Source of the DNA: Escherichia coli
GTDB lineage: Bacteria > Pseudomonadota > Gammaproteobacteria > Enterobacterales > Enterobacteriaceae
DNA length: 64,000 bases
Assembly: GCF_011045215.1 (NCBI RefSeq)
Contig: NZ_CP049201.1
Strand: one strand, 5' to 3'
Below the pieces are notes generated by a model. That model was not told where the DNA came from. It did not search any database and saw nothing but the letters and a program-made list of their open reading frames with translations. A program made the position numbers and the translations under genes. Below are positions 22,279-64,000 of the stretch, one piece after another. Each line of letters begins with the position of its first letter. The first letter of the stretch is position 1.

Positions 22279-22291
22279 ACTCTCTCCATTG

Positions 22292-22819: not shown

Positions 22820-22888
22820 GATAAGACCTCAATGAAAATGATAATTGTTATGCTAAAGTAGCCACTCTGTAAGCTGACAACACTCAAT

Positions 22889-23970: not shown

Positions 23971-24098
23971 TTATCGCCAGTCTTGTGCTGCCCACGCTAC
24001 GGACAGCACAAGATGTGCATTCAGCCTCGCCGTTCTGACGGGGCTGTGTTAGCATTACCCCTTCGTGAATCCACCTTCCAGCGTTTCAGAGCCTGCCA

Positions 24099-26030: not shown

Positions 26031-26067
26031 TCGTAAGCACAGCTTACGTTCGTCATCCTTAACGTGA

Positions 26068-26411
<344 letters not shown>

Positions 26412-26412
<1 letters not shown>

Positions 26413-27017: not shown

Positions 27018-27046
27018 GCAAACGAGAGCAGGATCACCTGCTCTCG

Positions 27047-27075
27047 CTTGAAATTATTCTCCTTTGTCCCCATCT
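27047..27075 (+). promoter_or_regulatory. sigma32 heat-shock promoter of htpG
   Basis: CTTGAAA at 27047-27053 and CCCCATCT at 27068-27075 with 14-nt spacer, matching the sigma32 consensus CTTGAAA-N13-15-CCCCATNT. Confidence 0.75.
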
Positions 27076-27126
27076 CTCCCTCATCCTGTTTTTAACCTTA
27101 AAATGGCATTATTGAGGTAGACCTAC

Positions 27127-29001: not shown

Positions 29002-29007
29002 TGTAAT

Positions 29008-29044
29008 GCCGGATGACCTTCGTGTCATCCGGCATTTTTCTTTT
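29008..29044 (+). terminator. rho-independent terminator of htpG
   Basis: Hairpin gccggatgaccttcgtgtcatccggc followed by a T-rich run. Confidence 0.8.
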
Positions 29045-29109
29045 CATTATCTGCACTTTCCGCAAATTATCTCGCCATTAACCGTTTCAGCCCCTGGTGC
29101 CTTTCTTGA

Positions 29110-29826
<717 letters not shown>

Positions 29827-29957
29827 TCAAGCCGCAGCAGATCTGCTTTCGGGCAGGTCTGCTCATCCTCCTCAGGCAATACCTCTTACAGCAATTAGTT
29901 CTTCTTCCTCACTTTTCCGCTACAATTATCAACAAGTTGAATCGATAAGAGGCGGTA

Positions 29958-30920
29958 ATGCGTCAGACTAAAACCGGTATCCTGCTGGCAAACCTGGGTA
30001 CACCCGATGCCCCCACACCTGAAGCGGTAAAACGCTATCTGAAACAATTTTTAAGCGACAGACGCGTGGTTGATACCTCACGGTTGTTATGGTGGCCGTT
30101 GCTGCGTGGCGTGATTTTGCCGCTGCGCTCGCCGCGTGTGGCGAAGCTGTATGCCTCTGTCTGGATGGAAGGTGGCTCGCCGCTGATGGTTTACAGCCGC
30201 CAGCAACAGCAGGCGCTGGCACAACGTTTACCGGAGACGCCCGTAGCGCTGGGAATGAGCTACGGCTCGCCATCACTGGAAAGCGCCGTAGATGAACTCC
30301 TGGCAGAGCATGTAGATCATATTGTGGTGCTGCCGCTTTATCCGCAATTCTCCTGTTCTACGGTCGGTGCGGTATGGGATGAACTGGCACGCATTCTGGC
30401 GCGCAAACGTAGCATTCCGGGGATATCGTTTATACGTGATTACGCCGATAACCACGATTACATTAATGCACTGGCGAACAGCGTACGCGCTTCTTTTGCC
30501 AAACATGGCGAACCGGATCTGCTGCTGCTCTCTTATCATGGCATTCCCCAGCGTTATGCAGATGAAGGCGATGATTACCCGCAACGTTGCCGCACAACGA
30601 CTCGTGAACTGGCTTCCGCATTGGGGATGGCACCGGAAAAAGTGATGATGACCTTTCAGTCGCGCTTTGGTCGGGAACCCTGGCTGATGCCTTATACCGA
30701 CGAAACGCTGAAAATGCTCGGAGAAAAAGGCGTAGGTCATATTCAGGTGATGTGCCCGGGCTTTGCTGCGGATTGTCTGGAGACGCTGGAAGAGATTGCC
30801 GAGCAAAACCGTGAGGTCTTCCTCGGTGCCGGCGGGAAAAAATATGAATATATTCCGGCGCTTAATGCCACGCCGGAACATATCGAAATGATGGCTAATC
30901 TTGTTGCCGCGTATCGCTAA
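29958..30920 (+). CDS. hemH: ferrochelatase
   Basis: 320-aa [31 protein letters not shown]... Confidence 0.95.
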
Positions 30921-31876
30921 AGCTGAGCGGTAAAGAACTGAGCGCCGTCGCGAAGAGCCTCGTCGGCGGTTTTCATCATCCGTGAATAATGCAAAAAGGC
31001 GTGCAGCGTGCCTGGGTAGAGTTTGAACTCACAGGGCTGCTGATGCGCCGCTAACGTCTGGTAAAGCAGACGGCTGTCATCCAGCAGCGGATCGAACTCC
31101 GCCCCGGCAATAAAACAGGGCGGAACTTCGCGAGTGAGATCATTATTAAACAGACAGTAATACGGCGACTCGCGGTCCGCGTCGTTGCTTAAATACGCCT
31201 CTTCATACATCTGCAAATCCTGTTGCGTTAAGCCATCCCAGACACCGCCCAACAGACGACGAGTCACGGAATCCCGTAATCCGTAAAGCCCATACCACAG
31301 CAAAACACCCGCAATTTTACCGCAATCGATCTGTTTATCACGCAACCACAACGCACTGGCGAGCGCCAGCATGGCACCTGCGGAATCACCGGCAAAGCCA
31401 ATGCGGGACATATTAATTTGATAATCCTCCGCCTGCTGGTGGAAATAACAACAAGCAGCCACAATTTCCTCTATCGCTTGCGGAAAACGCGCTTCAGGTG
31501 AAAGGGTGTAATCAATACCAATCACCGTACATTGGCTGTAGCTTGCCAGCAGGCGCATGATGCGATCGTGGGTATCGAGATTGCCGAGAATAAAACCGCC
31601 TCCATGCAAATAAAATAGCGTCGCTGGGCTATCTGGCTGCGGACAAAAGAGACGTGTTTCCACCTGCCCATATTTTGTTGGAACCATGTAAGCTCTGGTT
31701 GCCATTTCTGGAGCGCCCGCATTCCAGAATCGGCGCTCAAGCGTGTAATACTGTCGTTGCTCAGCAATCGTTCCCGTTGCGGGCCAGGGCGGTAAATCCG
31801 GCTGAAGAGTATTCACAACGGTCTTCATTTCAGCAGAAATAAGGTCCAGAACAGGTAATTTGTTTTCCGGCTTCAT
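30917..31876 (-). CDS. aes: acetyl esterase (alpha/beta hydrolase, HSL family)
   Basis: 319-aa ORF with HGGGF oxyanion motif and GDSAG nucleophile elbow; 3-prime end overlaps hemH by 4 nt (convergent). Confidence 0.93.
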
Positions 31877-33344: not shown

Positions 33345-33435
33345 TCGTAGGCCAGATAAGGCGTTCACGCCGCATCTGGCATTTGGCATCTCGATGCCTG
33401 ATGCGACGCTGGCGCGTCTTATCATGCCTACATAT
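33345..33435. repeat. REP element pair downstream of gsk
   Basis: cgtaggccagataaggcgttcacgccgcatctggca ... gcctgatgcgacgctggcgcgtcttatcatgcctac, REP consensus in inverted orientation. Confidence 0.8.
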
Positions 33436-39107: not shown

Positions 39108-39191
39108 ACACCGTCGCTTAAAGTGACGGCATAATAATAAAAAAATGAAATTCCTCTTTGACGGGCCAATAGCGATATTGGCCATTTTTTT
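39108..39191 (+). ncRNA. chiX: small regulatory RNA ChiX (MicM/SroB)
   Basis: Sequence ACACCGTCGCTTAAAGTGACGGCATAATAATAAAAAAATGAAATTCCTCTTTGACGGGCCAATAGCGATATTGGCCATTTTTTT: 5-prime hairpin, A-rich seed region, terminator hairpin plus U-run; located in the ybaK-ybaP intergenic region where ChiX is encoded. Confidence 0.85.
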
Positions 39192-40484: not shown

Positions 40485-41030
40485 CGTAGGCCGGATAAGG
40501 CGTTCACGCCGCATCCGGCATCCGAGCACCATTGCCTGATGCGACGCTTACGCGTCTTATCAGGCCTACAAACCTGTGCCTGAACCGTAGGCCGGAGAAG
40601 GCGTTCACGCCGCATCCGGCATCCGAGCACCATTGCCTGATGCGACGCTTACGCGTCTTATCAGGCCTACAAACCTGTGCCTGAACCGTAGGCCGGAGAA
40701 GGCGTTCACGCCGCATCCGGCATCCGAGCACCATTGCCTGATGCGACGCTTACGCGTCTTATCAGGCCTACAAACCTGTGCCTGAACCGTAGGCCGGAGA
40801 AGGCGTTCACGCCGCATCCGGCATCCGAGCACCATTGCCTGATGCGACGCTTACGCGTCTTATCAGGCCTACAAACCTGTGCCTGAACCGTAGGCCGGAG
40901 AAGGCGTTCACGCCGCATCCGGCATCCGAGCACCATTGCCTGATGCGACGCTTACGCGTCTTATCAGGCCTACAAACCTGTGCCTGAACCGTAGGCCGGA
41001 GAAGGCGTTCACACCGCATCCGGCAGTCAT
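40485..41030. repeat. tandem array of REP-containing units (BIME-like), five full 101-bp copies plus a degenerate sixth
   Basis: Unit cgtaggccggagaaggcgttcacgccgcatccggcatccgagcaccattgcctgatgcgacgcttacgcgtcttatcaggcctacaaacctgtgcctgaac recurs starting at 40485, 40586, 40687, 40788, 40889 (period exactly 101 bp); generates the identical 76-aa track ORFs on the minus strand. Confidence 0.9.
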
Positions 41031-43656: not shown

Positions 43657-43847
43657 GAAATTAATAACCCAGGCGAGTAAAAGTCCGTAAAGATTAAAAA
43701 ATCGGCTCGATTTGCATCAGGATTAGACATTTATCTCTTTGTTTTCCTGTAGTTAAGTTGCGGGTGCTAAGTTAAATCAGGATGCCTGAAAATCGGCACC
43801 GGGGTGAGGAATTACCTCCCGCATCTATAAAAAGGAGTTAACAAAAG

Positions 43848-44780
43848 ATGTTAGATGCAAACAAATTACAGCAGGCAGTGGATCAGGCTTACACCCAATT
43901 TCACTCACTTAACGGCGGACAAAATGCCGATTACATTCCCTTTCTGGCGAATGTACCAGGTCAACTGGCAGCAGTGGCTATCGTGACCAGCGATGGCAAC
44001 GTCTATAGTGCGGGTGACAGTGATTACCGCTTTGCGCTGGAATCCATCTCGAAAGTCTGTACGTTAGCCCTTGCGTTAGAAGATGTCGGCCCGCAGGCGG
44101 TACAGGACAAAATTGGCGCTGACCCGACCGGATTGCCCTTTAACTCAGTTATCGCCTTAGAGTTGCATGGCGGCAAACCGCTGTCGCCACTGGTAAATGC
44201 TGGCGCTATTGCCACCACCAGCCTGATTAACGCTGAAAATGCCGAACAACGCTGGCAGCGAATTTTACATATCCAACAGCAACTGGCTGGTGAGCTGGTA
44301 GCGCTCTCTGACGAAGTCAACCAGTCGGAACAAACAACCAACTTCCATAACCGGGCCATTGCCTGGCTGCTGTACTCCGCCGGATATCTCTATTGTGATG
44401 CAATGGAAGCCTGTGACGTGTACACCCGTCAGTGCTCCACGCTCATCAATACTGTTGAACTGGCAACGCTTGGCGCGACGCTGGCGGCGGGTGGTGTGAA
44501 TCCGTTGACGCATAAACGCGTTCTTCAGGCCGACAACGTGCCGTACATTCTGGCCGAAATGATGATGGAAGGGCTGTATGGTCGCTCCGGTGACTGGGCG
44601 TATCGTGTTGGTTTACCGGGCAAAAGCGGTGTAGGTGGCGGTATTCTGGCGGTCGTCCCTGGAGTGATGGGAATTGCCGCGTTCTCACCACCGCTGGACG
44701 AAGAAGGCAACAGTGTTCGCGGTCAAAAAATGGTGGCATCGGTCGCTAAGCAACTCGGCTATAACGTGTTTAAGGGCTGA
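43848..44780 (+). CDS. glsA: glutaminase 1 (serine-dependent beta-lactamase-like fold)
   Basis: 310-aa ORF MLDANKLQQAVDQAYTQFHSLNGGQNADYIPFLANVPGQ... Confidence 0.92.
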   Translation: MLDANKLQQAVDQAYTQFHSLNGGQNADYIPFLANVPGQLAAVAIVTSDGNVYSAGDSDYRFALESISKVCTLALALEDVGPQAVQDKIGADPTGLPFNSVIALELHGGKPLSPLVNAGAIATTSLINAENAEQRWQRILHIQQQLAGELVALSDEVNQSEQTTNFHNRAIAWLLYSAGYLYCDAMEACDVYTRQCSTLINTVELATLGATLAAGGVNPLTHKRVLQADNVPYILAEMMMEGLYGRSGDWAYRVGLPGKSGVGGGILAVVPGVMGIAAFSPPLDEEGNSVRGQKMVASVAKQLGYNVFKG

Positions 44781-44782
44781 TC

Positions 44783-46075
44783 ATGATGAACACGGAAGGT
44801 AATAACGGTAACAAACCTCTCGGTCTATGGAACGTCGTTTCCATCGGCATTGGGGCAATGGTGGGGGCGGGGATCTTCGCGCTGCTGGGGCAGGCTGCGT
44901 TGCTAATGGAAGCCTCGACATGGGTCGCCTTTGCTTTTGGCGGTATTGTGGCGATGTTTTCCGGTTATGCCTATGCGCGTCTGGGGGCGAGCTATCCCAG
45001 CAATGGCGGCATTATCGACTTCTTTCGTCGCGGATTAGGCAACGGCGTCTTTTCGCTGGCGCTCTCGTTACTGTACCTGTTGACGCTGGCGGTGAGCATC
45101 GCCATGGTCGCCCGTGCTTTTGGCGCTTATGCCGTGCAGTTTTTGCATGAAGGCAGCCAGGAGGAGCACCTTATTTTGCTCTACGCGTTGGGGATCATTG
45201 CGGTGATGACGCTTTTCAACTCCTTAAGCAACCATGCGGTAGGGCGGCTGGAAGTGATCCTCGTCGGCATTAAAATGATGATCCTGTTATTGCTGATTAT
45301 TGCCGGTGTCTGGTCGCTGCAACCGGCGCATATTTCCGTCTCTGCGCCCCCCAGCTCCGGTGCGTTCTTCTCCTGTATCGGGATAACCTTCCTTGCCTAT
45401 GCGGGCTTTGGCATGATGGCGAACGCGGCGGATAAAGTGAAAGATCCGCAGGTCATTATGCCACGGGCGTTTCTGGTGGCGATTGGCGTTACCACGTTGC
45501 TTTATATCTCGCTGGCGCTGGTTTTGCTTAGCGATGTATCGGCATTAGAGTTAGAAAAATATGCCGATACCGCCGTAGCGCAGGCAGCTTCTCCGCTGCT
45601 CGGGCATGTGGGTTATGTGATCGTCGTCATCGGCGCTTTACTGGCGACGGCTTCAGCCATCAACGCGAACCTGTTCGCCGTGTTTAACATCATGGACAAC
45701 ATGGGCAGCGAACGCGAACTGCCGAAGCTAATGAATAAATCCCTGTGGCGGCAGAGTACCTGGGGCAACATCATTGTCGTGGTGTTGATTATGCTGATGA
45801 CGGCGGCACTAAATTTAGGCTCACTCGCCAGCGTTGCCAGCGCCACCTTTTTGATTTGCTATCTGGCGGTGTTTGTGGTGGCGATCCGCCTGCGTCATGA
45901 TATTCACGCCTCGTTGCCGATTCTTATCGTAGGTACGTTGGTGATGTTGTTGGTGATCGTTGGCTTTATCTACAGCCTGTGGTCCCAGGGCAGCCGTGCG
46001 TTGATATGGATTATTGGTGCAATCTTACTCAGCCTTATTGTGGCAATGGTCATGAAGCGTAATAAAACCGTATAA
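44783..46075 (+). CDS. ybaT: APC-superfamily amino-acid transporter YbaT
   Basis: 430-aa polytopic membrane ORF 3 nt downstream of glsA (probable operon). Confidence 0.9.
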   Translation: MMNTEGNNGNKPLGLWNVVSIGIGAMVGAGIFALLGQAALLMEASTWVAFAFGGIVAMFSGYAYARLGASYPSNGGIIDFFRRGLGNGVFSLALSLLYLLTLAVSIAMVARAFGAYAVQFLHEGSQEEHLILLYALGIIAVMTLFNSLSNHAVGRLEVILVGIKMMILLLLIIAGVWSLQPAHISVSAPPSSGAFFSCIGITFLAYAGFGMMANAADKVKDPQVIMPRAFLVAIGVTTLLYISLALVLLSDVSALELEKYADTAVAQAASPLLGHVGYVIVVIGALLATASAINANLFAVFNIMDNMGSERELPKLMNKSLWRQSTWGNIIVVVLIMLMTAALNLGSLASVASATFLICYLAVFVVAIRLRHDIHASLPILIVGTLVMLLVIVGFIYSLWSQGSRALIWIIGAILLSLIVAMVMKRNKTV

Positions 46076-46412
46076 CACCTCTCTGTGCGCAGTACTTTCT
46101 GTACTGCGCCTTTGTCTTTAATTCAAATTACCTTTCTTATTCCTTTAATAAATAAGTCACAAAAAAATGATATATACGCGATAAATCTGTGATGCTAATC
46201 ACTTATTACCGTGGATTATTCTTAATGTGTATGATGGTAATCTAAAAGTCGTAGTGTATTCTAAATAAATAACGTATAAGCTTTTTAGCTGCATTTCTTT
46301 GCCCATATCAATGATCGACAAAAGAGATGCACAAGTTATTACCCTTCTTAATAAAATGAGACTGGTTATAAAAACCAGTTAAAATAATGACCTGGAAGGA
46401 AGTGACTTACCT

Positions 46413-47768
46413 ATGGCGCGATTCCAGTTTAAAAACCGTAAAAATAATGGACTTATTTTTTTAATAAGTTTTATGGTGATGGGAGAAGCTGCAATTGCTG
46501 CACCGCTGCCACAATGGGCGAATGCCCCAGCGGTAACGCCAGTTGCCCGATTATCTTTACAGGAAAGTATATTACGCGCCTTTGCGCGAAATCCCGACGT
46601 CACTCAACAGGCGGCGCAGATAGGCATTGGCGAAGCGCAAATTGATGAAGCCAAAAGTGCCTGGTATCCGCACGTTGGATTAACCGGCAACGCGGGGCCG
46701 TCCCGACAAACGGACTCCAGCGGCAGGCTTGATAACAACGTTTCGTATGGCATAACCCTGACACAACTGGTGTATGACTTTGGTAAAACTAACAACGATA
46801 TCAATCTGCAAACTGCCGCCCGTGACAGCTACCGCTTTAAATTGATGGCTACCTTAACCGATGTTGCAGAGAAAACGGCGACTGCCTATATGGAAGTCAG
46901 TCGTTATCAGGCTTTGTGCGATGCGGCTCAACGCAATATTCACTCGCTGGAAAACGTCTACAACATGGCGGCATTGCGCGCTAACGCTGGCCTGAACTCA
47001 TCGTCGGATGAATTACAGGCCCAGACGCGTATTGCCGGAATGCGCTCAACGCTGGAGCAATATCAGGCGCAGATGGCGAGCGCCAAAGCGCAACTGGCGG
47101 TGCTCACTGGCGTACAGCCAGAGGCGATAGCCGCGCCACCTGCTGAATTAGCCGAGCAGCCGGTATCGCTGAAGAATATTGATTACCAGTCCATCCCGCT
47201 GGTGCTGGCGGCAGAAAACTTACGCCAGTCAGCACAGTACGGCGTGGAAAAAACGAAAGCGCAATACTGGCCAACGCTCAGTATTCAGGGGGGTAAAACG
47301 CGCTACCAGACCAGCGACCGCTCGTATTGGGATGATCAGCTACAACTGAACGTTAACGCGCCGCTGTATCAAGGCGGCGCGGTTTCTGCCCAGGTGCAAC
47401 AGGCCGAAGGGCAACAAAAAATCTCTGCCTCGCAGGTCGAACAGGCAAAACTGGATGTGCTGCAACGAGCGTCTGTGGCATATGCGAACTGGACCGGCGC
47501 ACGGGGTCGCGAAGAAGCCGGTTTAGCGCAATCCGAAAGTGCGCACAAAACGCGAGATGTGTACCAAAATGAATATAAATTGGGTAAACGCAGTCTGAAT
47601 GATCTATTAACCGTCGAGCAAGATGTCTTTCAGGCGCAATCGGCTGAAATAAATGCCAATTATGATGGCTGGGTCGCCGCCGTAAATTATGCCGCTGCGG
47701 TGAATAACCTTATTCCTTTAGCGGGAATTAAACAGGGCTTATACAACGACTTACCCGACTTGAAATAA
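46413..47768 (+). CDS. TolC-family outer-membrane channel, probable type I secretion outer membrane protein
   Basis: 451-aa ORF with N-terminal signal-like hydrophobic segment (LIFLISFMVMGEAAIAAP); TolC-like composition and helical repeat pattern (LSLQESILRAFARNPDV, ...YDFGKT..., coiled-coil Q/A-rich segments); sits immediately upstream of the giant repeat protein gene; preceded by an AT-rich region. Confidence 0.7.
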   Translation: MARFQFKNRKNNGLIFLISFMVMGEAAIAAPLPQWANAPAVTPVARLSLQESILRAFARNPDVTQQAAQIGIGEAQIDEAKSAWYPHVGLTGNAGPSRQTDSSGRLDNNVSYGITLTQLVYDFGKTNNDINLQTAARDSYRFKLMATLTDVAEKTATAYMEVSRYQALCDAAQRNIHSLENVYNMAALRANAGLNSSSDELQAQTRIAGMRSTLEQYQAQMASAKAQLAVLTGVQPEAIAAPPAELAEQPVSLKNIDYQSIPLVLAAENLRQSAQYGVEKTKAQYWPTLSIQGGKTRYQTSDRSYWDDQLQLNVNAPLYQGGAVSAQVQQAEGQQKISASQVEQAKLDVLQRASVAYANWTGARGREEAGLAQSESAHKTRDVYQNEYKLGKRSLNDLLTVEQDVFQAQSAEINANYDGWVAAVNYAAAVNNLIPLAGIKQGLYNDLPDLK

Positions 47769-47870
47769 TCCTGCCATTATTAATAGTGGGCCGTTGTTAA
47801 GTGATTACCTTTGTCTTATTTAGATAAATGGACTCGCTAAGGATGTGCGCCATTTATCAGGAATGCTATT

Positions 47871-50800
47871 ATGAGCCTGATTATTGATGTTATTTCGCGT
47901 AAAACATCCGTCAAACAAACGCTGATTAATCCTGGCGACGTCACGGTTGTTATTTATGAGCCTTCCGTGGTGCAGGTTCATGCTCAGGCCTCTGCCGTTG
48001 CGCGTTACGTCCGTGAAGGAAATGACCTGCTGATCTATTTGCAGGACGGCACGGTGATCCGCTGCAACGGTTATTTCCTGCAAGCGGCGAATACAGCTGA
48101 ACAATCGGAACTGGTGTTTGCCGATGGTCAACAGCTAACCCATGTCACCTTCGCCGATACTGCTGCGGGTGGATTAGCCCCCGTAGAACTGACTGCCCAG
48201 ACCACTGCGATTGAAAGCATTGCGCCATTTCTTGATACCGTTGCTCAGACCAGCGCCTTCCCGTGGGGTTGGCTGGCGGGGGCGGCGGTAGGTGGCGGTG
48301 CGCTTGGTGCACTGCTGGCAAGCGGTGGCGATGGCGACTCGAAAACAGAAGTGATTAATAACCCTACGCCACCTGCTGAGCCTGGCAACGCCACACCATC
48401 ATTTTTAGTTACCGATAATCAGGGCGATCAGCGCGGCATTCTCGCCACCAATGACATCACCGATGACACCACGCCAACCTTTAGCGGCAGCGGGCAGGCG
48501 GGGGCGACTATTCAGATTAAAGACAGTAACGGCAATACTATTGCCAGTACTCAGGTAGACAACAACGGTCACTGGAGTGTCTCGTTACCCACGCAAAGTG
48601 CAGGTGAACATACCTGGTCAGTGGTGCAAATTGTCGGCAGTACCATCACTGACGCCGGTTCGATAACGTTAACCATCGACAATAGTCAGGCCAGCGTGCA
48701 GGTTGCCACCACCGCAGGCGATAACATTATTAACGCCAGCGAACAGGCCGCCGGGTTTACGCTTTCTGGCACCAGTAGCCATCTGGCACAGGGAACAGAA
48801 CTCACCGTCACACTTAACGGCAAAACCTACACCACCAGCGTAGGCGCTAACGGTGCCTGGAGCGTGCAGGTGCCGACCGCCGATGCACAGGCGTTAGGCG
48901 AAGGGAATCAGGCGGTACTGGTCAGTGGGAAAGACACCACAGGCAATACGGTCACCGGCGCGCAGCTGCTAACGGTCGATACCCAACCGCCAACGCTTGC
49001 CATCAACACCATCGCTCAGGACAACATCATCAGTGCTGCGGAACATAACGTCGCGCTGGTACTGAGCGGCACGTCGAATGCAGAAGCGGGGCAAACCGTA
49101 ACACTGACCGTCAACGGGAAAAGCCATACAGCAACCGTCGGTAGCGACGGAACCTGGCAAGTGACGCTGCCTGCCACGGAAGTCCAGGCACTGGCGGAGG
49201 GTAATTACGCTGTCAATGCCAGTGTCAGCGATCGGGCAGGGAACACCACCAGCCACAGCGCGAATCTCACGGTAGACACCTCAGCACCCGTGGTCAGTGT
49301 TAATACCGTGGCGGGCGACGATATTCTTAATAATGCCGAGCAGGCCGTCGCGCAGATCATCTCCGGACAAGTTAGCGGTGCTTCTCCTGGCGATACGGTA
49401 ACGGTGAAATTGGGCACTCATGTCCTGACGGGCATCGTGCTGGCAGATGGCAGCTGGAATGTGGCGTTGGACCCGGCGGTAACCCGCACGCTGGATCGCG
49501 GAGCCAATACGATTTTCGTCACCGTGACAGATGCTGCAGGAAATACTGGCGCGGCGTCTCGAGCAATCACGCTGGTCGGTGTTTCTCCGTTGATCACCAT
49601 TAACACCGTCTCCGGCGATGACATTATCAGTGGCGCAGAAAAAGGTGCGCCACTGACCCTTACCGGTAGCACTCAACAGGCTGAGACAGGACAAACCGTC
49701 ACAGTAACCCTGGCTGGACAGAGTTTTACCACTACCGTGCAGGCCGATGGCTCCTGGAGTCTGACGGTACCTGCCGCCGCGATGGGAAATCTGCCTGACG
49801 GCGCGGTGGCGATTACCGCTTCTGTGACGGATCTCAGCGGCAATACCGGCAACACCTCCCGCACCATTACCGTCGACAGCCAGGCCCCGGCCTTAAGCAT
49901 TGATCCACTGACCGCTGATAACATCATTAACGCCGCCGAAAGCGGGCAGGATCTGCCCATCACCGGCACCACCGACGCTCAGCCGGGGCAGACGGTGACC
50001 GTTACGTTAAATGGGCAGACGTATCAGGGCGTCGTGCAGCCAGACGGCACCTGGAGCGTGACTGTGCCCGCCGCCAACGTGGGCGCACTGGCTGACGGCA
50101 ACGCTACGGTCACCGCCAACGTGAACGATGTCGCCGGTAATCCGAGCAGCGTCTCACGCGTGGCGCTGGTCGATGCCACGCCGCCGGTGGTGACCATTAA
50201 TCCGGTGGCGACCGATAACGTCATTAACACGCCGGAACATACCCAGGCGCAAATCATCAGCGGTACGGTTACTGGCGCTCAGGCGGGCGATATCGTCACC
50301 GTGACGCTGAATAATGTGAATTACACCACGGTGGTGGATGGTTCCGGCAACTGGAGCCTGGGCGTTCCGGCCTCGGTGGTCAGTGGGCTGGCGGACGGCA
50401 GTTATCCTGTCAGCGTCTCGGTAACCGACAAAGCCGGAAACACGGGCAGCCAGTCACTGACTGTCACGGTCAATACCGCAGCGCCCCTTATCGGCATTAA
50501 CAGCATTGCGGGCGATGATGTGATTAATGCCAGCGAAAAAGGGGCCGATCTCCAGATTACCGGCACCAGCGATCAGCCAGTGGGTACCGCCATCACCGTG
50601 ACGCTCAACGGGCAAAACTATGCGGCGACGACCGATGCCTCCGGCAACTGGAGCGTCAACGTTCCGGCATCGGCGGTAACCGCACTGGGCCAGGCCAACT
50701 ACACGGTAACGGCGGCGGTAACCAGCGATATCGGCAACAGCACCACCGCCAGCCATAATGTGCTGGTCGACAGCGCGCTGCCCGGCGTGACCATTAACCC

Positions 50801-53800
50801 GGTGGCAACCGATGATATTATTAACGCCGCCGAAGCGGGCGTGGCGCAAACCATCAGCGGGCAGGTGACTGGAACCGCCGTTGGCGACGCGGTAACCGTG
50901 ACGCTGGGCGGTAATACCTACACCACCACCGTGCAGGCCGGCTTAAGCTGGAGCGTGGACGTTCCGGCGGACGCTATTCAGGCGCTGGGTAATGGCGATT
51001 TAACGGTTAATGCCTCGGTCACCAATCAAAACGGCAACACCGGCAGCGGCACGCGGGATATCACCATCGACGCCAATCTGCCCGGCCTGCGGGTCGATAC
51101 GGTGGCGGGCGATGATGTGGTCAATATCATCGAGCACGGGCAGGCGCTGGTGATTACCGGCAGCAGTTCGGGGCTGGCAGAAGGCACGCCGCTTACCGTT
51201 ACGATTAATAATGTGGAATACACCACTGCGGTGCAGGCCGATGGTAGCTGGAGCGTGGGCGTCACGGCGGCGCAGGTTAGCGCCTGGCCTGCGGGGACGG
51301 TTAATATTGCCGTGTCCGGGGAAAGTAGCGCCGGAAATCCGATAAGCATTACGCATCCGGTAACGGTGGATCTCACTCCGGCGGCTATCACCATCAACAC
51401 TATCGCCACGGACGATGTGATTAACGCTGCAGAAAAAGGGGCTAATTTAACTCTTTCCGGCACCACCACTAACGTAGAAGCAGGGCAAACCGTCACTGTC
51501 ACCTTTGGCGGTAAAAATTACACCGCCAGCGTGGCGGGCGATGGTAGCTGGACTGCCACCGTTCCCGCCGCCGATCTGGCGGCATTACCGGAAGGCAGCG
51601 CCTCCGCTCAGGCCAGCGTCAGCAATATCAACGGCAATAGCGCCTCGGCGGTGCATAACTACAGCGTCGACAGCAGCGCGCCAACCATCATTATCAATAC
51701 CGTCGCCAGCGACAATATCGTCAACGCCAGCGAAGCCGATGCGGGTGTGACGGTGAGCGGCAGCACCACCGCTGAAGCGGGGCAGATTGTTACGGTAACG
51801 CTCAATAGCCCGACCGTGCAGACGTATCAGGCAACGGTACAGGCGGACGGCAGCTGGAGCATCAATATTCCGGCGGCAGATCTTGAGGCATTGACCGATG
51901 GCAGCCACACCCTGACCGCGACGGTCAATGACAAAGCGGGCAACCCGGCGAGCACCACGCATAATCTGGCGGTGGATCTCACCGTCCCGGTACTCACCAT
52001 CAATACCATTGCGGGCGATGACATTATTAACGCCGCCGAGCACGGACAGGCGCTGGTGATTTCTGGTTCCAGCACAGGCGGAGAGGCGGGAGATGTCGTC
52101 ACCGTCACGCTAAACAGTAAAACCTACACCACGACGCTGGATGCCTCCGGCAACTGGAGCGTCGGTGTTCCGGCGGCGGATGTCACCGCGCTGGGTAGCG
52201 GCCCGCAAACCATCACTGCCAGCATTACCGATGCGGCAGGTAATAGCGACAGCGAAACGCACACGGTCACCGTTAACCTTACCGCGCCGACCATTGGCAT
52301 TAACACCATCGCCACCGATGACGTGATTAATGCCACCGAAAAAGGCGCAGATCTGCAAATCTCCGGCACCAGTAATCAGCCAGCGGGCACCACGATTACG
52401 CTGACGTTTAACGGGCAAAATTACACCGCCACGACGGACGCCGCAGGTAACTGGAGCACCACGGTGCCAGCCTCTGCCGTCGGTGCGCTGGGCGAAGCCA
52501 GCTACACGGTGACGGCGAACGTCACCGACAGCGCAGGCAACAGCAATTCCGCCAGCCATAACGTGCAGGTCAATACCGCGCAGCCTGGCGTCACCATTAA
52601 TCCGGTTGCGACTGACGATATTATTAACGCCGCCGAATCGGGCAATGCGCAAACCATCAGCGGTCAGGTAACGGGCGCGGCGGCGGGCGATACCGTCACC
52701 GTGACGCTTGGCGGGAAAACCTACACGGCTACCGTGCAGGGGAATCTAAGCTGGAGCGTGGATGTTCCGGCTGCGGATATTCAGGCCATCGGTAATGGCG
52801 ACCTGACTGTTAACGCCTCAGTGACCAACGGCGTTGGCAATACCGGCAGCGGTTCGCGAGATATTACTATCGACGCCAACCTGCCTGGCCTGCGCGTCGA
52901 TACCGTGGCGGGCGATGATGTGGTTAACAGCATCGAACACGGTCAGGCACTGGTGATAACTGGTAGCAGCAGCGGGCTGGCGGTGGGCGCGGCGCTGACG
53001 GTGGTGATCAATAACGTCACCTATGGCGCGACAGTATTAGCCGATGGCACATGGAGCGTTGGTGTTCCGGCGGTAGACGTGAGTAACTGGCCTGCGGGTA
53101 CGGTGAATATCACGGTAAGTGGCACTAACACAGCCGGAACAACATCCACCATTACCCATCCGGTCACCGTCGATCTGGCGGCGGTGGTGATTTCCATTAA
53201 CACCATCTCCGGCGATGATGTGATTAACGCCGCCGAAAAAGGGGCAGATTTAACCCTTTCCGGCAGCACCTCCGGCGTAGAGCCAGGGCAAACGGTCACC
53301 GTCACCTTTGGCGGCAAAACCTACACCGCCACCGTAGCAGGCGATGGTAGCTGGACAACCACCGTACCTGCCGCCGATCTCAGCGTGTTACGCGACGGCG
53401 ACGCCACGGTACAGGCCAGCGTCAGCACTATTAACGGCAACACGGCTTCGGCAACCCACGCTTACAGCGTTGATGCCACTGCCCCGACGCTTGCCATTAA
53501 TACCATCGCCACCGACGATATTCTGAACGCCGCCGAGGCGGGCAATCCGCTAACCATCAGCGGCAGTAGCACCGCTGAAGCGGGGCAGACGGTAACTGTC
53601 ACGCTTAATGGCGTGACTTACACCGGCACCGTCCTGGCGGACGGGAGCTGGAGCGTCAGCGTGCCGACGGCGGATCTCAGCAATCTGACCGCCAGCCAGT
53701 ACACCGTCAGCGCCTCGGTAAACGATAAAGCGGGTAACCCGGCATCCACCACTCACGGGCTGGCGGTGGATCTCACCGTGCCGGTGCTGACCATCAACAC

Positions 53801-56800
53801 CGTCTCCGGCGATGACATTATTAACGCCGCCGAACACGGACAGGCGCTGGTGATCTCCGGCTCCAGTACTGGCGGCGAAGCGGGCGATGTCATCACCGTC
53901 ACGTTAAACAGTAAAACCTACACCACCACGCTGGATGCCTCCGGTAACTGGAGCGTCGGCGTTCCGGCGGCAGATGTCACCGCACTTGGCAGCGGCCCGC
54001 AAACCATCACGGCCACGATTACGGATATCGCGGGTAATAGCGATGATGCTAGCCGCACGGTCACCGTAAATCTCACCGCGCCAACCATTGGCATCAACAC
54101 CATCGCCACCGATGACGTGATTAACGCCACGGAAAAAGGCGCGGATCTGCAAATTACCGGCACCAGTAATCAGCCCGCGGGCACCACCATTACGGTGACG
54201 TTGAACGGGCAAAATTACACCGCTACTACCGATAGCAACGGCAACTGGAGCGCCACGGTGCCAGCGTCAGCGGTTAGCACGCTGGGTGAAGCTAACTACA
54301 CGGTAACCGCGAACGTCACCGACAGCGCAGGTAACAGCAATTCCGCCAGTCATAACGTGCTGGTCAACAGCGCCTTGCCTGCCGTCACCATTAACGCGGT
54401 GGCGACCGACGATATTATTAACGCTGCCGAAGCGGGCAATGCGCAAACCATCAGCGGGCAGGTGACGGGTGCCGCGGCGGGCGACACGGTTACCGTTACG
54501 CTGGGCGGCAACACCTACACCGCTACCGTACAGGCTAATTTAAGCTGGAGCGTTAGCGTGCCAGCGGCGGATATTCAGGCGCTGGGCAACGGCGACCTGA
54601 CAATTAATGCCTCGGTCACTAACGTCGTCGGCAACACCGGCAGCGGCTCGCGCGATATCACGATCGACGCCAATCTGCCTGGCTTACGGGTCGATACCGT
54701 GGCGGGCGATGATGTGATTAACAGCATTGAGCACAATCAGGCGCTGGTGATCACCGGTAGCAGCACCGGGCTGACGGCGGGAACGGCGTTAACGGTCGAG
54801 ATTAACAACGTTACTTATGGCGCGACGGTGTTAGCCGACGGCACATGGAACCTCGGTGTTCCGGCGGCAGACGTCAGCAACTGGCCTGCGGGTACGGTGG
54901 ATATCACGGTAAGCGGCACCAACAGCGCCGGAACAACCTCCACCATTACCCATCCGGTTACCGTCGATCTGTCGGCAGTCGCCATCACCATTAACACTCT
55001 CTCTGGTGATGATGTGATCAACGCCGTCGAAAAAGGCGAAACGCTGGTCGTAAGCGGCAGCACCAGCGGTGTCGAAGCCGGGCAAACGGTGACCGTCACC
55101 TTTGGCGGCAAAAATTACACCACCACTGTGGAAGCTAACGGTAGCTGGACGGTGAACGTACCGCCTGCCGATCTCGCTGCGCTACCGGACGGTGCGGGCA
55201 ACGTGCAGGCGAGTGTCAGCAACATCAACGGCAATAACGCCCAGGCGGATCGTACGTACAGCGTCGATGCCACCGCGCCACTTGTGACCATCAACACCAT
55301 CGCCAGCGACGATATCCTTAACGTGAGCGAAGCTGGCGCGGGGATCACCATCAGCGGCACTACCACGGCGCAGGCCGGGCAGACGCTGACCGTCACGCTC
55401 AATAATAACACGTACCAGACCACGGTTCAGGCGGATGGCACCTGGAGCGTGAATGTTCCGGCAGCGGATTTAAGCGGATTAACCGCCAGCAGTTACACCG
55501 TGACCGCCACGGTGAGCGACAAAGCGGGTAACCCGGCAAGCGCCGACCACGCGCTGGCGGTGGACGTTACCGCACCGGATCTCACCATTAATACCGTCGC
55601 GGGCGATGACATTATTAATGCCATCGAACACGGTCAGGCGCTGGTCGTCAGCGGAACCAGCACGGGCGCGGCGGCGGGTGATGTGGTCACGGTTAACCTG
55701 AACGGTAAAAACTACACCACCACGCTGGATGCCTCCGGTAACTGGAGCGTGGGCATTCCTGCGGTGGATGTGACGGCGCTGGCAACCGGCAACCAGACCA
55801 TTACCGCCAGCCTGAGCGATCGCGCGGGCAACAGCGACAGCACGACTCACAATGTGACCGTTGATCTCAGCGGCCCGACGCTGACCATCAACACCGTCTC
55901 CGGCGATGACATTATTAATAATGCGGAGAAAACCCAGGACTTGATCATCAGCGGCGGCTCCAGCGGTCTGGCGGCAGGCACTACGGTCACCGTGATGTTG
56001 AACGGCCTGGCGTACAGCGCTACTACCGACGGCTCCGGCAACTGGAGCGTTACCGTGCCTGCTTCTTCGGTTGGCGCGCTCGGCGAGGCGGTGTATCAGA
56101 TTAGCGCCAGCGCCACCGACAGCGCGGGCAACAGTGGCAGCACCACCCATACGGTGAATGTCGAATCGCTCCTGCCTGGGGTAATCATTAATACCGTGGC
56201 GGGCGATGACATTATCAACGCCGCTGAAATCGCTGTGGCGCAGACCATCAGCGGTCAGGTCACGGGGACGGCGGTTGCGGGTAATACGGTGATTGTCACC
56301 ATTGGCGGCAATCAATATAACGCCACCGTGCAGTCAGATTTAAGCTGGAGCGTCAGCGTACCTGCGAACGTTTTGCAGGCGCTGGGCAACGGTGAACTGA
56401 CCATCAGCGCCTCGGTGACTAATTCCGCAAATAATACCGGCACCACAACGCACGACATCGTGATAGATGCCAACCTGCCAGGTCTGCGCGTCGATACCGT
56501 GGCAGGCGATGATGTGATTAACAGCATCGAGCACACTCAGGCGTTGGTGATCACCGGTAGCAGTAGCGGACTGGCGGCGGGCGCGGCGTTGACGGTGGTT
56601 ATCAATAGCGTCACCTACGGCGCAACGGTTTTAGCGGATGGTAGCTGGAGCGTTGGTGTTCCGGCGGCAGATGTCACAAACTGGCCTGCGGGGACGGTCA
56701 ATATTGCCGTCTCTGGCACCAACACCGCCGGAACGACAACCAGTATTACCCATCCGGTGACCGTCGATCTCGCAGCCGTGGCGATCACCATCAACACCCT

Positions 56801-59800
56801 TTCCACTGACGATGTGATTAACGCCGCCGAAAAAGGCAGCGATTTGCAGCTCTCCGGCACCACCTCCGATGTGGAAGCGGGGCAAACCATCACCGTTATC
56901 TTCGGCGGCAAAAGCTACACCACCACGGTTGCCGCGGATAATACCTGGGGGCTGACGATCCCTGCCGCCGATGTTGCAACCTTGCCAGACGGCGCAGCAA
57001 ACGTCCAGGCCAGCGTCAGCAATGTCGCAGGGAACAGCGCCCAGGCAACGCATGCTTACAGCGTTGATGCCACTGCGCCCTCCGTTACCATCAACACCAT
57101 CGCCACGGACGATATTCTTAACGCCGCCGAAGCGGGATCGGCGCTGACCATCAGCGGCACCAGCACGGCGGAAGCCGGGCAGACGGTGACCGTAACGCTA
57201 AACGGCGTTAATTACAGCGGCAATGTGCAGGCAGACGGGAGCTGGAGCGTCAGCGTCCCGACCGGCGATTTAGCTAACCTCACTGCCAGCCCCTATACGG
57301 TGAGCGCAGCGGTCAGCGACAAAGCCGGAAATCTGGCTTCGGCGACGCATAACCTGACGGTGGACCTTGCCGCTCCGGTCGTCACCATTAACACGGTGGC
57401 GGGCGATGACATCATCAACGCCACGGAACACGGACAGGCGCAGATTATCAGCGGCTCGGCAACGGGCGCGACGACGGGTAACACGGTTTCCGTGACGATT
57501 GGCACGACCACCTACGCCACTGTGCTGGACGCCAACGGCAACTGGAGCATCGGCGTACCTGCCAGCGTGATTTCCGCACTGGCGCAGGGTGATGTAACCA
57601 TTACTGCCACGGTTACCGACTCCGCAGGCAACAGTGGCACGGCTTCGCACATTGTCAGCGTGGCGCTCGGCGCGCCGATACTCAGCATTAACACCATTGC
57701 CGTCGACGACATCCTCAACGCCACGGAGAAAGGTGCAGATCTGGCGATTACCGGCACCAGCAACCAGCCCGCGGGTACGCAGATTACCATTACGCTCAAC
57801 GGGCAAAATTACACCACCACTGCCGATGCATCCGGGAACTGGAGCGTAACCGTTCCGGCGTCACGGGTCAGCGCCCTCGGTGAAGCCACTTATACGGTGA
57901 CTGCCGCCGCCACTGACACCGATGGCAACAGCGGTTCCGCCAGCCATAATGTGCAGGTCAATACCGCGCTGCCGGGCGTCACCATTAACGTGGTGGCGAG
58001 CGACGATATTATTAACGCCGCCGAAGCGGGCGCGGGCCAGACCATCAGTGGGCAGGTGACGGGTGCTGCGGCAGGCGATACCGTTACCATAACGCTCGGC
58101 GGAGCGACTTACACCGCTACGGTGCAGGCGAATTTAAGCTGGAGCGTCGATGTTCCGGCCTCCGCGCTACAGGCGTTGGGCAACGGTGAGCTGACCATTT
58201 CGGCCTCGGTAACGAACAGCGTGGGCAATACAGGTAACGGCACGCGCGAAATCACCATCGACGCGAATCTCCCTGGTCTGCGGGTCGACACCGTGGCGGG
58301 CGATGACGTGGTCAACATTATCGAGCACAATCAGGCGCTGGTGATTACCGGCAGCAGCTCCGATCTGGCAGCGGGCAGCAACGTCACGCTGACCATAAAC
58401 GGGCAAACGTATGTTGCGGCGGTGCTGGCGGATGGCTCATGGAGCGTCGGCGTTCCGGCGGCAGATGTCAGCGCCTGGCCTGCGGGGAAGGTCACAATTA
58501 CGGCGAGCGGCAACACCACCGCCGGAAACCCGGTGAGCGTTACGCATCCGGTGACGGTCGATCTCACTGCGGTGGCGGTCAGCATCAACGCCATTACTGC
58601 CGATGACGTGATTAACGCTGCCGAAAAAGGCGCGGCGTTAACGCTCTCTGGCAGCACTACTGGTGTGGAGGCCGGACAAACGGTCACCGTCACCTTTGGC
58701 GGCAAAACTTACAGCGCCACGGTGGCTGCGAATGGTTCCTGGAGCACCTCGGTTCCGGCGGCAGATATGGCGGCCCTGCGTGATGGCGATGCCAGCGCAC
58801 AGGCCAGCGTCAGCAATGTTAACGGCAACAGCGCCACCACTACCCACGCATACAGCGTCGATGCCAGCGCGCCAACGGTGACCATTAACACCATTGCGGG
58901 CGACGACATTCTTAACGCCGCCGAAGCCGGAGCGGCGCTAACCATCACCGGCAGCAGCACGGCGGAAGTGGGGCAGACGGTGACCGTCACGCTCAATGGC
59001 GCAAACTATACCGGCACTGTACAGACGGACGGCAGCTGGAGCGTCAGTGTGCCGCCAGCCGACTTAAGCGCTCTGACCGCCAGCAACTACACCGTTAGCG
59101 CGGCGGTGAGCGACAAAGCCGGAAACCCGGCCTCGGTTAACCACAACCTGACGGTGGATACTTCCGTTCCGGTCGTCACCATCAACACGGTGGCAGGCGA
59201 TGATGTGATCAACGCGACGGAACACGCCCAGGCGCAGATCATCAGCGGCTCCGCCACGGGAGCGGTAACCGGTAGCACCGTGACGGTGACTATCGGCACA
59301 AATACCTTTACCACGGTGCTGGATGCCAGCGGCAACTGGAGCGTCGGCGTCCCGGCAAGCGTCGTCTCGGCACTGGCGAACGGCACGGTGACCATTAACG
59401 CCAGCGTCACTGATGCCGGAGGAAACAGCGGCAGCACCACCCATCAGGTGACGGTCAATACCGGGCTGCCGACCATTACCTTTAACGCTATCAGCGGCGA
59501 TAACGTCCTGAACGCCGATGAAAAAGGCCAGCCGTTGACCATCAGCGGTAGCAGTACGGGGCTGGCGACGGGCGCGCAGGTTACCGTCTCGCTCAACGGT
59601 CACAACTACAGTGCTACCACCGACGCAGCAGGCAACTGGACCTTAACCGTGCCGGTGAGCGATCTGGCGGCTCTAGGCCAGGCCAACTATACCGTCAGCG
59701 CCAGCGCCACCAGTGCGGCGGGCAACACCGCCAGCAGCCAGGCGAATTTACTGGTCGACAGCGGCCTGCCGGGCGTCACCATCAACACCGTAGCGGGCGA

Positions 59801-62800
59801 CGATATTATCAACGCCGCCGAAGCGGGGGCCGATCAAACCATCAGCGGGGTGGTGACTCGCGCCGCCGCAGGCGATACGGTCACCGTGACGCTGGGCGGC
59901 AACACTTACACAGCGCAGGTTCAGGCCGATTTAAGCTGGAGCGTCACCGTTCCGGCAGCCGATTTCCAGGCGCTGGGCAATGGTGATTTGACCATTACCG
60001 CCTCGGTCACCAACGCGAATGGCAACACTGGCAGCGGCACGCGGGATATCACCATTGACGCCAACCTGCCTGGGCTGCGGGTGGATACCGTGGCGGGCGA
60101 TGATATCGTCAACAGTATCGAGCACGGGCAGGCGCTGGTGATCACCGGCGGCAGTAGCGGCCTGAATGCAGGTGCTGTGCTGACGGTTACCATCAACAGT
60201 GTGGCGTATTCCGCCACGGTACAGGCGGACGGGAGCTGGAGCGTCGGCATTTCGGCGGCAAGCGTCAGCGCCTGGCCTGCGGGGCCGTTAACCGTTGATG
60301 TGGCAGGACAGAGCAGCGCCGGAAATCCGGTCAGCGTCAGCCATCCGTTCACCGTCGATTTAACTTCGGTGGCTATCAGCATCAACACCGTTGCCAGCGA
60401 CGACGTAATTAACGCCGCCGAGAAAGGCACCGACCTGACCCTTTCCGGCAGCACCAGCGGGATTGAAAGTGGGCAAACCGTTACCGTCACCTTTGGCGGT
60501 AAAACCTACACCGCAAGCGTCGCCGCCAATGGAAGCTGGAGCGTAACGGTTCCGGCGGCGGATCTGGCAGCTCTGCCAGACGGCGCGGCGAACGTGCAGG
60601 CCAGCGTCAGCAGCGCGAGCGGCAATAGCGCCTCAGCGACTCATGCGTACAGCGTTGACGCCAGCGCGCCGACGCTCACCATTAACACCATCGCCAGCGA
60701 TGACATCCTTAACGCGGCAGAGGCGGGAAATCCGCTGACCATCAGCGGCACCAGCACCGCCGAAACCGGGCAGACGGTGACCGTCACCCTTAACGGCGCA
60801 ACCTACAGCGGTAATGTGCAGGCAGATGGTAGCTGGAGCGTCAGCGTTCCCACTTCAGCCCTGGGCGCGCTCACCGCAAGCAATTATACCGTCAGCGCCA
60901 CCGTCAACGACAAAGCGGGTAACCCCGGCAGCGCCAGCCATAATCTGGTGGTAGACACCACCGCGCCGGTTCTTACCATAAATACCGTGGCGGGCGATGA
61001 CATCATCAACGATGCCGAACATGCGCAGGCGCTGGTGATCTCCGGCACCAGTAGCGGCGGGGAAGCGGGCGATGTGGTGAGCGTTGTGCTCAACGGCAAA
61101 ACCTACACCACCACCCTGGATGCCTCCGGCAACTGGAGCGTCGGCGTTCCGGCGGCGGATGTTACGGCACTCGGTAGCGGTGCGCAGACCATCACCGCCA
61201 GCGTCAGCGATCGGGCAGGCAACAGCGACGACGCCAGCCGCACCGTCACCGTTAGCCTCAGCGCGCCAGTGATTAGCATCAACACCATCGCGGGCGATGA
61301 TGTGATCAACGCGACGGAAAAAGGATCCGATCTGGCGCTTTCCGGCACCAGCGATCAGCCTGCGGGTACGGCGATCACCGTCACGCTGAACGGACAAAAC
61401 TACAGCGCCACTACCGACGCCTCCGGCAACTGGAGCGTTACTGTGCCCGCCTCGGCGGTCAGTGCGCTGGGCGAAGCGACCTACAGCGTCACGGCGAGCG
61501 TCACCAATGCCCAGGGCAACAGCAGCACCGCCAGCCATAACGTGCAGATCAATACCGCGCTGCCGGGCGTCACCCTTAATCCGGTGGCGACGGACGATAT
61601 TATCAATGCCGCCGAAGCGGGCAGCGCACAAACCATCAGCGGCCAGGTAACCGGGGCGGCGGCGGGCAGTACCGTCACCGTTGAACTGGGCGGTAAAACT
61701 TACACCGCCATCGTCCAGGCTGATTTAAGCTGGAACGTGAGCGTACCAGCCGCCGACTGGCAGGCGCTGGGTAACGGTGAGTTAACCGTTAACGCCTCGG
61801 TCACCAACGCCGTTGGCAACACCGGCAGCGGCACGCGCGATATCACCATCGATGCCAGTCTGCCTGGCCTGCGGGTGGATACCGTCGCGGGTGATGATGT
61901 GGTCAATATCATCGAACACAGTCAGGCGCAGGTGATCACCGGCAGCAGCTCTGGCTTTGCGGCGGGCACGGCGCTGACGGTGGTGGTAAATAACCAAACT
62001 TACGCCGCCACGGTGCTGGCGAACGGCAGCTGGAGCGTCGGCGTTCCGGCGGCGGATGTCAGCAACTGGCCTGTGGGAACGCTGAATATTAGCGTTAGCG
62101 GCGCAAACAGTGCCGGAACGCAAACCAGCATTACCCATCCGCTGACTGTTGATCTCACGACCGTCGCCGTCAGCATGAACAGCATCACCAGCGATGATGT
62201 GATTAACGCCGCCGAAAAAGGCGCGGCGCTAACGCTCTCCGGCAGCACGTCTGGCGTCGAAGCGGGGCAAACCGTCACCGTCACCTTTGGCGGCAAAACC
62301 TACACCTCCACGGTGGCGGCTAACGGTAGCTGGAGCACCACCGTTCCGGTTGCGGATATGGCGGCGCTGCGTGACGGCGATGCCAGCGCCCAGGTGCGGG
62401 TGACTAACGTCAACGGCAACAGCGCCACGGCAACGCACGAATACAGCGTCGATAGCGCCGCGCCAACGGTCACCATCAACACCATTGCCAGCGATAACAT
62501 CATCAACGCCAGCGAAGCGGCGGCGGGCGTAACGGTGTCCGGCACCAGCACGGCGGAAACCGGGCAGACGCTCACCGTCACGCTTAACGGCACTAACTAC
62601 CAGACCACGGTGCAGGCAGACGGCAGCTGGAGTTTAACGCTGCCCGCCAGCGACTTAACCGCACTGGCTAATAACGGCTACACCCTGACCGCCACGGTCA
62701 GCGATCTGGCGGGTAACCCTGGCAGCGCCAGCAAAGGCGTGACCGTCGATACCACTGCGCCGGTGATCAGTTTTAACACCGTGGCGGGCGATGATGTGAT

Positions 62801-64000: not shown

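Follow-up and report, generated by a model that had tools for sequence, protein, structure and literature searches.

The 3′ end of a 64,000-nucleotide stretch of Escherichia coli DNA (RefSeq assembly GCF_011045215.1, contig NZ_CP049201.1; one strand, read 5′ to 3′, referred to below as the window) is occupied by the 5′ part of siiEA, a giant gene of O-island 28 that encodes a predicted adhesin of the RTX type. The coding sequence lies on the plus strand at 47871-64000 (16,130 nt; codons 1-5376 plus 2 nt) and is cut at the window end. A prediction made from the letters alone (hereafter the original prediction) had claimed a stop-free open reading frame (ORF) of more than 5,370 codons from the ATG at 47871 to the last base, with an expected count of zero in-frame stops. 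Translation of 47871-63998 gave exactly this, a run of 5,376 codons free of stops. The remaining five frames over the same interval contained 250, 284, 108, 475, and 62 stops. With the base composition found here (A 0.226, C 0.307, G 0.301, T 0.166), ~167 stops would be expected, and the log10 probability of observing none was −73.9. Over 200 shuffles of the sequence, the longest run without a stop had a mean of 176 codons and a maximum of 368. The start of siiEA is unambiguous; an in-frame TAA is located at 47838, the next start codon downstream is the ATG at 47871, and the RefSeq start of siiEA in strain PapM-32-1 corresponds to the same position. A putative Shine-Dalgarno-like AGGA, read from the letters, is found 8 nt 5′ of the ATG (47859-47862, plus strand). 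Because the orthologous genes of PapM-32-1, CB9615, ECNB21-M121, and M7424 are 20,778 nt long (6,925 aa), the window holds 77.6% of siiEA, and ~4,650 nt (22%) lie past base 64000.

The N-terminus matched NCBIfam model NF047714 (adhesin_SiiEA) with 505.7 bits (cut-off 425), residues 1-230 aligning to profile positions 1-229. RefSeq labels the product "BapA-related adhesin SiiEA"; z0609+z0615 and rtxA28+rtxB28 are other names of the gene in O157:H7. The flanking gene order is apt, dnaX, ybaB, recR, htpG, adk, hemH, aes, gsk, ybaL, fsr, ushA, ybaK, ybaP, ybaQ, copA, glsA, and ybaT, followed by a TolC-family gene and siiEA. The siiEA locus is situated between ybaT and cueR, right after its own channel gene. 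This channel gene (46413-47768, plus strand), the first of the cluster and the orthologue of tolC28/z0608, encodes a TolC-family outer-membrane channel (TIGR01844 type_I_sec_TolC, 416 bits; cut-off 225) and is annotated in RefSeq genomes as "TolC family outer membrane protein". Region 43800-48600 was 99.9% identical to PapM-32-1 and 99.3% identical to many O55:H7 and O157:H7 genomes, all of which annotate siiEA with a start equivalent to window position 47871. The identity, start, domain composition, and synteny of siiEA were established in this analysis. The gene is an orthologue of annotated siiEA, for which a dedicated NCBI model and experimental work on the locus exist; the finding is therefore ordinary and known already.

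The part of siiEA in the window has a GC content of 60.8% (70.9% at third positions), and the adjoining tolC-like gene one of 51.6%. The giant gene is thus atypical in composition even inside its own island, when compared with the co-transcribed tolC-like gene (46413-47768). In the visible part of the protein, Thr, Ala, Val, Gly, and Ser together account for 60% of residues, and Cys is absent.

SiiEA begins with a non-repeat module of 189 residues (47871-48437, plus strand), composed according to profile matches of a BapA-prefix domain (aa 5-132), presumed to be the retention module, and a linker. Pfam assigned BapA_N to aa 5-132 (E 7.9e-19) and Big_13/Big_6 to the region that follows (aa 181-270); NCBIfam model NF033677 (biofilm_BapA_N) scored 70.3 bits. 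In an AlphaFold2 model of the module (predicted local distance difference test score, pLDDT, 64.9), aa 1-122 were beta-rich with pLDDT 62-91, and aa 123-174 were disordered with pLDDT <50. Fold searches with this model returned Ig-domain matches alone. A conserved Gly/Ala-rich stretch, PWGWLAGAAVGGGALGALLASG (aa 131-152; 48261-48326, plus strand), separates the BapA-prefix domain from the first immunoglobulin (Ig)-like domain. Eight of its residues (W134, A136, G142, G143, G146, A147, L148, and L149) were invariant in 13 orthologues, down to 54% identity, and the stretch was strongly kept in the orthologues of Enterobacter, Pluralibacter, Pseudocitrobacter, and Apirhabdus. A transmembrane anchor at this position was considered and rejected. 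The stretch was not among the most hydrophobic 19-residue windows and was modelled as disordered; we therefore treat it as a linker and not as a proven membrane helix. In a 2026 preprint (bioRxiv 10.1101/2025.09.30.679566), the minimal RTX adhesin is defined by a retention module (127-196 aa) whose linker spans the channel, by Ig-like extenders, and by a beta-roll that carries a type I secretion system (T1SS) signal. At 189 aa, the N-terminal module of SiiEA is inside the published range.

Nearly all of the remaining visible protein consists of Ig-like units. A hidden Markov model (HMM) built iteratively from a single repeat detected 53 units in the window, i.e., 52 complete units and the start of a 53rd, which make up ~95% of the visible protein. 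The first unit (aa 190-265; 48438-48665, plus strand) is divergent; it gave only a partial match to the repeat HMM (29.8 bits) and was recognised by Pfam as Big_13/Big_6. It is followed by 51 contiguous extender domains of the predicted Ca2+ type (repeats 2-52, aa 267-5355; 48669-63935, plus strand), each 99-102 aa long and arranged end to end, and by the first 21 residues of repeat 53 (63936-63998, plus strand), which the window end interrupts. NCBIfam reported ~55 stretches of NF033510 (Ca_tandemer) along the visible protein, plus NF012196 (Ig_like_ice). Pairwise identity among units had a median of 45% and a maximum of 91%. Identity was 0.66 at lags 6, 12, and 18 vs. ~0.44 at other lags, indicating a six-domain super-repeat of 598 aa (1,794 nt). 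The motifs DDxxNxxE (D17, N21, E24), G.W, and D.AGN are invariant or nearly so across units, and they align with SDDVINASE, GEWS, and DAAGN of the RII tetra-tandemer of MpIBP (PDB 4P99). This structure was matched by the repeats with E values of 8e-42 and 4e-47; 5IRB, 6XI3, and 4KDV were also matched. Judged from these profile and motif matches, the array is a tandem array of Ca2+-type extender domains of the RTX-adhesin class, for which Ca2+ binding is predicted.

A gene of this size was missing from the program-made ORF track. The ORF lister omits ORFs that are open at either sequence end, and siiEA is absent from the track because it runs off the source; its absence is a tool artefact, in agreement with the explanation in the original prediction, which had named the lack of a stop inside the window as the probable cause. 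Between 48000 and 64000, the ORFs listed at ≥100 aa were on the minus strand only, including 63429-63791. The original prediction had described the listed ORFs as frame shadows, and had named conserved domains on the minus strand as one observation that would speak against the plus-strand gene. None was matched: the ten longest minus-strand ORFs (137-278 aa) had no NCBIfam match at E≤0.01, and the longest had no Pfam match even at E≤10. In ungapped comparison with four full-length alleles, the window showed 747-1,091 differences, 73% of them at plus-frame third positions, and ~75% of the codons that differed between alleles were synonymous. Both the lack of family matches and the third-position bias bear out the description as shadows. 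Purifying selection evidently acts on the plus frame of siiEA, to judge by the pattern of substitutions. The predicted nature of the protein, Ig-like repeats behind a BapA-prefix N-terminus, likewise held when the translation was searched against Pfam and NCBIfam, through matches to BapA_N and the Big_13/Big_6 families and to the SiiEA, biofilm_BapA_N, and Ca_tandemer models. A lister that drops end-open ORFs misses precisely the largest genes and displays antisense shadows (here up to 278 aa) instead.

The C-terminus and the secretion partners were studied in orthologues. In the PapM-32-1 protein, the C-terminal part adds a further extender, a number of Big_13 domains of a different type, 3-4 FG-GAP-like repeats (FG-GAP_3, three matches), RTX nonapeptides (HemolysinCabind, E 2e-4), and a type I secretion target domain (TIGR03661, 33.5 bits; cut-off 17.6). 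In orthologous loci, siiEA is followed at its 3′ side by genes for a T1SS permease/ATPase and an HlyD-family adaptor and by cueR. The ATP-binding cassette (ABC) partner scored 836.7 bits against the LssB-type model TIGR03375 (cut-off 693) and 387.8 bits against the HlyB subfamily model, under its cut-off of 725.55; the HlyD adaptor scored 328 bits against TIGR01843. A dedicated T1SS is thus encoded beside the adhesin gene, with the TolC-family gene in the window and the ABC and HlyD genes in orthologous loci only.

Together, these data suggest how SiiEA might work, by analogy with MpIBP, LapA, and BapA. In MpIBP, type I export relies on the RTX repeats together with a C-terminal signal that is not cleaved off; RII, rigidified by Ca2+, is the extender; and the N-terminal domain folds without Ca2+, exceeds the TolC-like pore, and tethers the protein (PMC5550230). 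SiiEA would be exported C-terminus first through its dedicated T1SS, consisting of the TolC-like channel, the LssB/LapB-type ABC transporter, and the HlyD adaptor, driven by C-terminal RTX repeats and secretion signal like those of its orthologues. The ~53 Ig-like domains would fold and stiffen on meeting extracellular Ca2+ and form a rod of ~0.25 μm (scaled from MpIBP), which would present a distal ligand-binding region containing FG-GAP repeats. The BapA-prefix module would fold without Ca2+ and plug the channel from the periplasmic side, and the Gly/Ala linker, to judge by its conservation and modelled disorder, may thread the channel. We propose that SiiEA would remain attached to the cell because the N-terminal plug is held in the periplasm while the linker threads the channel. 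The sequence in the window is very probably, in our assessment, the 5′ 78% of the gene for the O-island 28 RTX-type adhesin, exported by a T1SS, stiffened by Ca2+, and retained by a plug.

The locus has been studied in EDL933, in which O-island 28 comprises z0608 (tolC28), z0609 (rtxA28), z0615 (rtxB28), z0634 (hlyB28), and z0635 (hlyD28). A 2025 report showed that the island is needed for early adherence to Caco-2 cells and for colonisation of the mouse gut, and that it is Ca2+-responsive and activated by RstA, which binds a TAATTCAAATTACC box at -294 to -280 (PMC12758282). The same box is present in the window at 46119-46132 (plus strand), i.e., at -294 to -281 from the tolC-like ATG at 46413, as reported for EDL933 (PMC12758282). 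This was the one exact match in the window (chance expectation 0); it is a predicted site here, binding having been shown in the EDL933 work. A terminator-like hairpin for ybaT (46087-46109) is located just 5′ of the box and marks the left edge of the island.

Among 5,426 complete E. coli genomes, 959 carried siiEA, every one on the chromosome. Sources of the siiEA-bearing strains include water, meat, frog, otter, and baboon, and orthologues are also found in Enterobacter, Pluralibacter, Pseudocitrobacter, an insect symbiont, and a bee-gut bacterium. The 2025 report described the island as absent from the genomes of extraintestinal pathogenic and enteroaggregative E. coli; yet siiEA is present in AF57, a UK blood-culture isolate, and an earlier paper lists the gene in UMN026 and in an enteroaggregative isolate.

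The allele in the window differs from those of the complete genomes. It was collinear without gaps with the four 20,778-nt alleles over 16,130 nt, at 93.2-95.4% identity (4.6-6.8% diverged). The best match among the 5,426 complete genomes had 95.4% identity over the gene part and 94.6% over 52000-64000. A search for an identical allele in the complete E. coli genomes found none; the sole record at ≥99% was a partial match of 463 nt (H40). By sequence comparison, then, its divergence from each of the 959 alleles of complete genomes amounts to ~5% or more, which is a minor novelty. The first ~900 nt of the gene were identical to PapM-32-1, followed by abrupt divergence. Identity per 500-nt bin ranged from 0.88 to 1.00, and the nearest reference allele switched along the gene. 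The reference alleles, all exactly 20,778 nt long, differ by 4-6% among themselves, and their flanks are 99-99.9% identical. This mosaic pattern looks like recombination between alleles without change of length.

Several alleles of other strains are broken. EDL933 (gene length 20,160 nt), H2495, and 611 have a TAG at codon 1462, where the window has GAA (52254-52256, plus strand), and PV15-279 has a stop at codon 1027 together with a frameshifted tolC; siiEA was broken in 4 of the 4 O157:H7 genomes examined. Within the window span, the allele described here has one repeat more than that of EDL933. Because the O157:H7 alleles are interrupted by stops, the "two RTX proteins" of the 2025 report are two pieces of one gene. 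In AF57, siiEA is frameshifted (17,006 nt; locus record 14001-31006), and in ECNB21-M121 an IS1 is inserted between ybaT and the tolC-like gene and the ABC gene is frameshifted (locus record 3780-4477 and 26782-28130). From these independent lesions, the island seems prone to decay. Two points are modestly useful: the window allele is intact where the four O157:H7 genomes examined are interrupted, and siiEA alleles show 4-7% mosaic differences at constant length. We tentatively suggest, with somewhat less than even confidence, that the window carries an intact and so far unsampled allele, at least ~5% from all those in the 5,426 genomes even though flanking sequence agrees to 99.9% with that of a sequenced strain, that its mosaic structure reflects frequent recombination or antigenic diversification of the extender, and that the O157:H7 copies used for the only functional study are interrupted by nonsense codons. 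If this is true, the biology of the intact adhesin, with its ligand, linker-based retention, and length-dependent reach, would be essentially unstudied.

Other explanations of the locus were weighed against an exported, cell-anchored adhesin. GC-rich DNA with stop-poor minus frames (60.8% GC; stop-free runs of up to 289 codons) could in principle yield an open frame by composition or repetition alone, with the real gene among the short ORFs of the track. This idea is refuted by a no-stop probability of ~1e-74, by shuffled sequences that never went above 368 codons, by strong family matches in the plus frame only with none for antisense ORFs, and by the third-position bias of allele variation in the plus frame. 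The frame could also be a non-exported remnant if siiEA of this strain is a pseudogene in decay or an orphan that lacks a functional secretion system. Independent inactivations of the locus are indeed common (EDL933, H2495, 611, PV15-279, AF57, ECNB21-M121), and the last 22% of siiEA and the ABC and HlyD genes are outside the window; however, all 5,376 codons and the tolC-like gene are intact, collinearity with four intact 20,778-nt alleles is free of gaps, substitutions are mostly synonymous, and conservation extends to the RstA box and the promoter region. We consider decay in this strain unlikely. Some of the same points weigh against our preferred explanation: in other strains, the locus is frequently disrupted; for the 3′ 22% of siiEA (with the RTX repeats and secretion signal) and for the ABC and HlyD genes, all located past the window end, our knowledge comes from orthologues only; the functional work used O157:H7, whose siiEA carries an internal stop; and it is from homologues that we infer Ca2+ binding, surface retention, and the ligand.

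The function of the protein allows two further explanations. The orthologues end in RTX nonapeptides and a type I secretion signal, and older annotations used an exoprotein name ("RTX family exoprotein A", a label dating from the 2001 era; PMC12758282), as would suit a released exoprotein or toxin that is not anchored to the cell. Such a product is highly improbable here, given that ~95% of the visible protein consists of Ig-like extenders homologous to adhesin stalks, that a BapA-prefix module is present at the N-terminus, that the ABC partner falls under the HlyB cut-off and over the LssB/LapB-type cut-off, that no acyltransferase gene is found in the cluster, and that the published mutant phenotype is loss of adherence (PMC12758282). 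A more serious alternative is that SiiEA acts mainly as a BapA-like protein of biofilm formation or cell-cell aggregation in an environmental or commensal setting and not as an adhesin for host epithelium. The N-terminus of SiiEA is of the BapA/Bap/LapF prefix family, orthologues are present in Enterobacter, Pluralibacter, Pseudocitrobacter, the insect symbiont, and the bee-gut bacterium, the E. coli strains with the gene include isolates from water, meat, frog, otter, and baboon, and all four O157:H7 genomes examined have a broken copy. Mutants lacking O-island 28, by contrast, adhered less to Caco-2 cells and colonised mice less well (PMC12758282). One protein could fill both roles, and we consider a mainly biofilm-related role less likely than not. 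Surface attachment through an exported, plug-retained adhesin remains our preferred explanation.

The rest of the window also showed variation between strains. Five naRNA4/CssrE elements (Rfam; of the repetitive extragenic palindromic type) are arranged in tandem with a 101-nt period in the ybaQ-copA gap (40489-40970), and a sixth is located 3′ of gsk (33350-33428). The ybaQ-copA gap measured 618 nt in the window and in PapM-32-1 vs. 214 nt in O55:H7 strain CB9615, and the copy number of these elements therefore varies between strains. In htpG (27063-29048), ~30 mismatches to PapM-32-1 were found in 2 kb, whereas the rest of the 24-kb flank was almost identical; the cluster is probably a small recombination patch. 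The usual RNA features of E. coli were present: the dnaX frameshift element (25363-25427), 4.5S signal recognition particle RNA (ffs; 8463-8559), and sroB (39108-39191).

SiiEA was compared with several named systems. Despite the similar name, orthology with Salmonella SiiE (SPI-4) was rejected: there was no sequence match to the solved SiiE domains, the N-terminus is a BapA prefix and not of the SiiE type, and the cluster has no siiA/siiB-like genes. SiiE chains 2YN3 and 2YN5 were absent from the phmmer matches at E≤1e-3, and fold similarity was weak. Besides siiEA, the cluster in orthologous loci contains genes for TolC, ABC, and HlyD alone. The label "adhesin for cattle intestine colonization" given to siiEA of UMN026 appears to be borrowed from Salmonella and not to stem from E. 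coli experiments. A pore-forming toxin of the HlyA type was likewise rejected, on the grounds that the ABC partner is below the HlyB cut-off, the cluster has no hlyC-like gene, and the visible protein consists almost entirely of Ig-like repeats. LapA of Pseudomonas fluorescens, with its LapBCE exporter, shares the LssB/LapB-type ABC transporter with SiiEA and also the logic of a retention module, which is presumed for SiiEA. The partial SiiEA has a single TAAG dialanine motif (aa 97-100; 48159-48170), placed much as the LapG cleavage site is in LapA. In the 12 orthologues compared, close ones included, the motif is not kept, and AASGG, EASG, or ETAG stands in its place. A search limited to the siiEA cluster of orthologous loci found no lapG or lapD. 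Regulated proteolytic release of the LapG type was rejected as unsupported because TAAG is not conserved and neither gene is in the cluster.

Salmonella BapA (bapABCD) has, like SiiEA, a BapA-prefix N-terminus, tandem Ig-like repeats, and a T1SS encoded alongside. SiiEA is much longer (6,925 aa vs. ~3,800 aa), and the gene order differs, tolC being first in the siiEA cluster. NCBI calls SiiEA "BapA-related"; we place it beside BapA by family profile and do not claim orthology. MpIBP of Marinomonas primoryensis (RII, 4P99/4KDV; RI, 5IRB) has homologous Ig-like repeats of ~100 aa with shared DDVINASE, G.W, and D.AGN motifs. The layout of the two proteins is alike (retention module, presumed in SiiEA; extender; ligand-binding region, putative in SiiEA; RTX repeats and T1SS signal, seen for SiiEA in orthologues). 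They differ in that MpIBP has ~120 nearly identical repeats and SiiEA ~53 at 45% median identity in a six-domain super-repeat, in the distal region (FG-GAP in SiiEA, PA14 or an ice-binding domain in MpIBP), and in the N-terminal module, which in SiiEA is of the BapA-prefix type. The closest known system is the E. coli O-island 28 adhesin itself (NF047714), which has the same chromosomal site, start, domain types, and RstA box as the window; for the site ybaT-tolC-siiEA-ABC-HlyD-cueR, the upstream half was seen in the window and the downstream half in orthologous genomes only.

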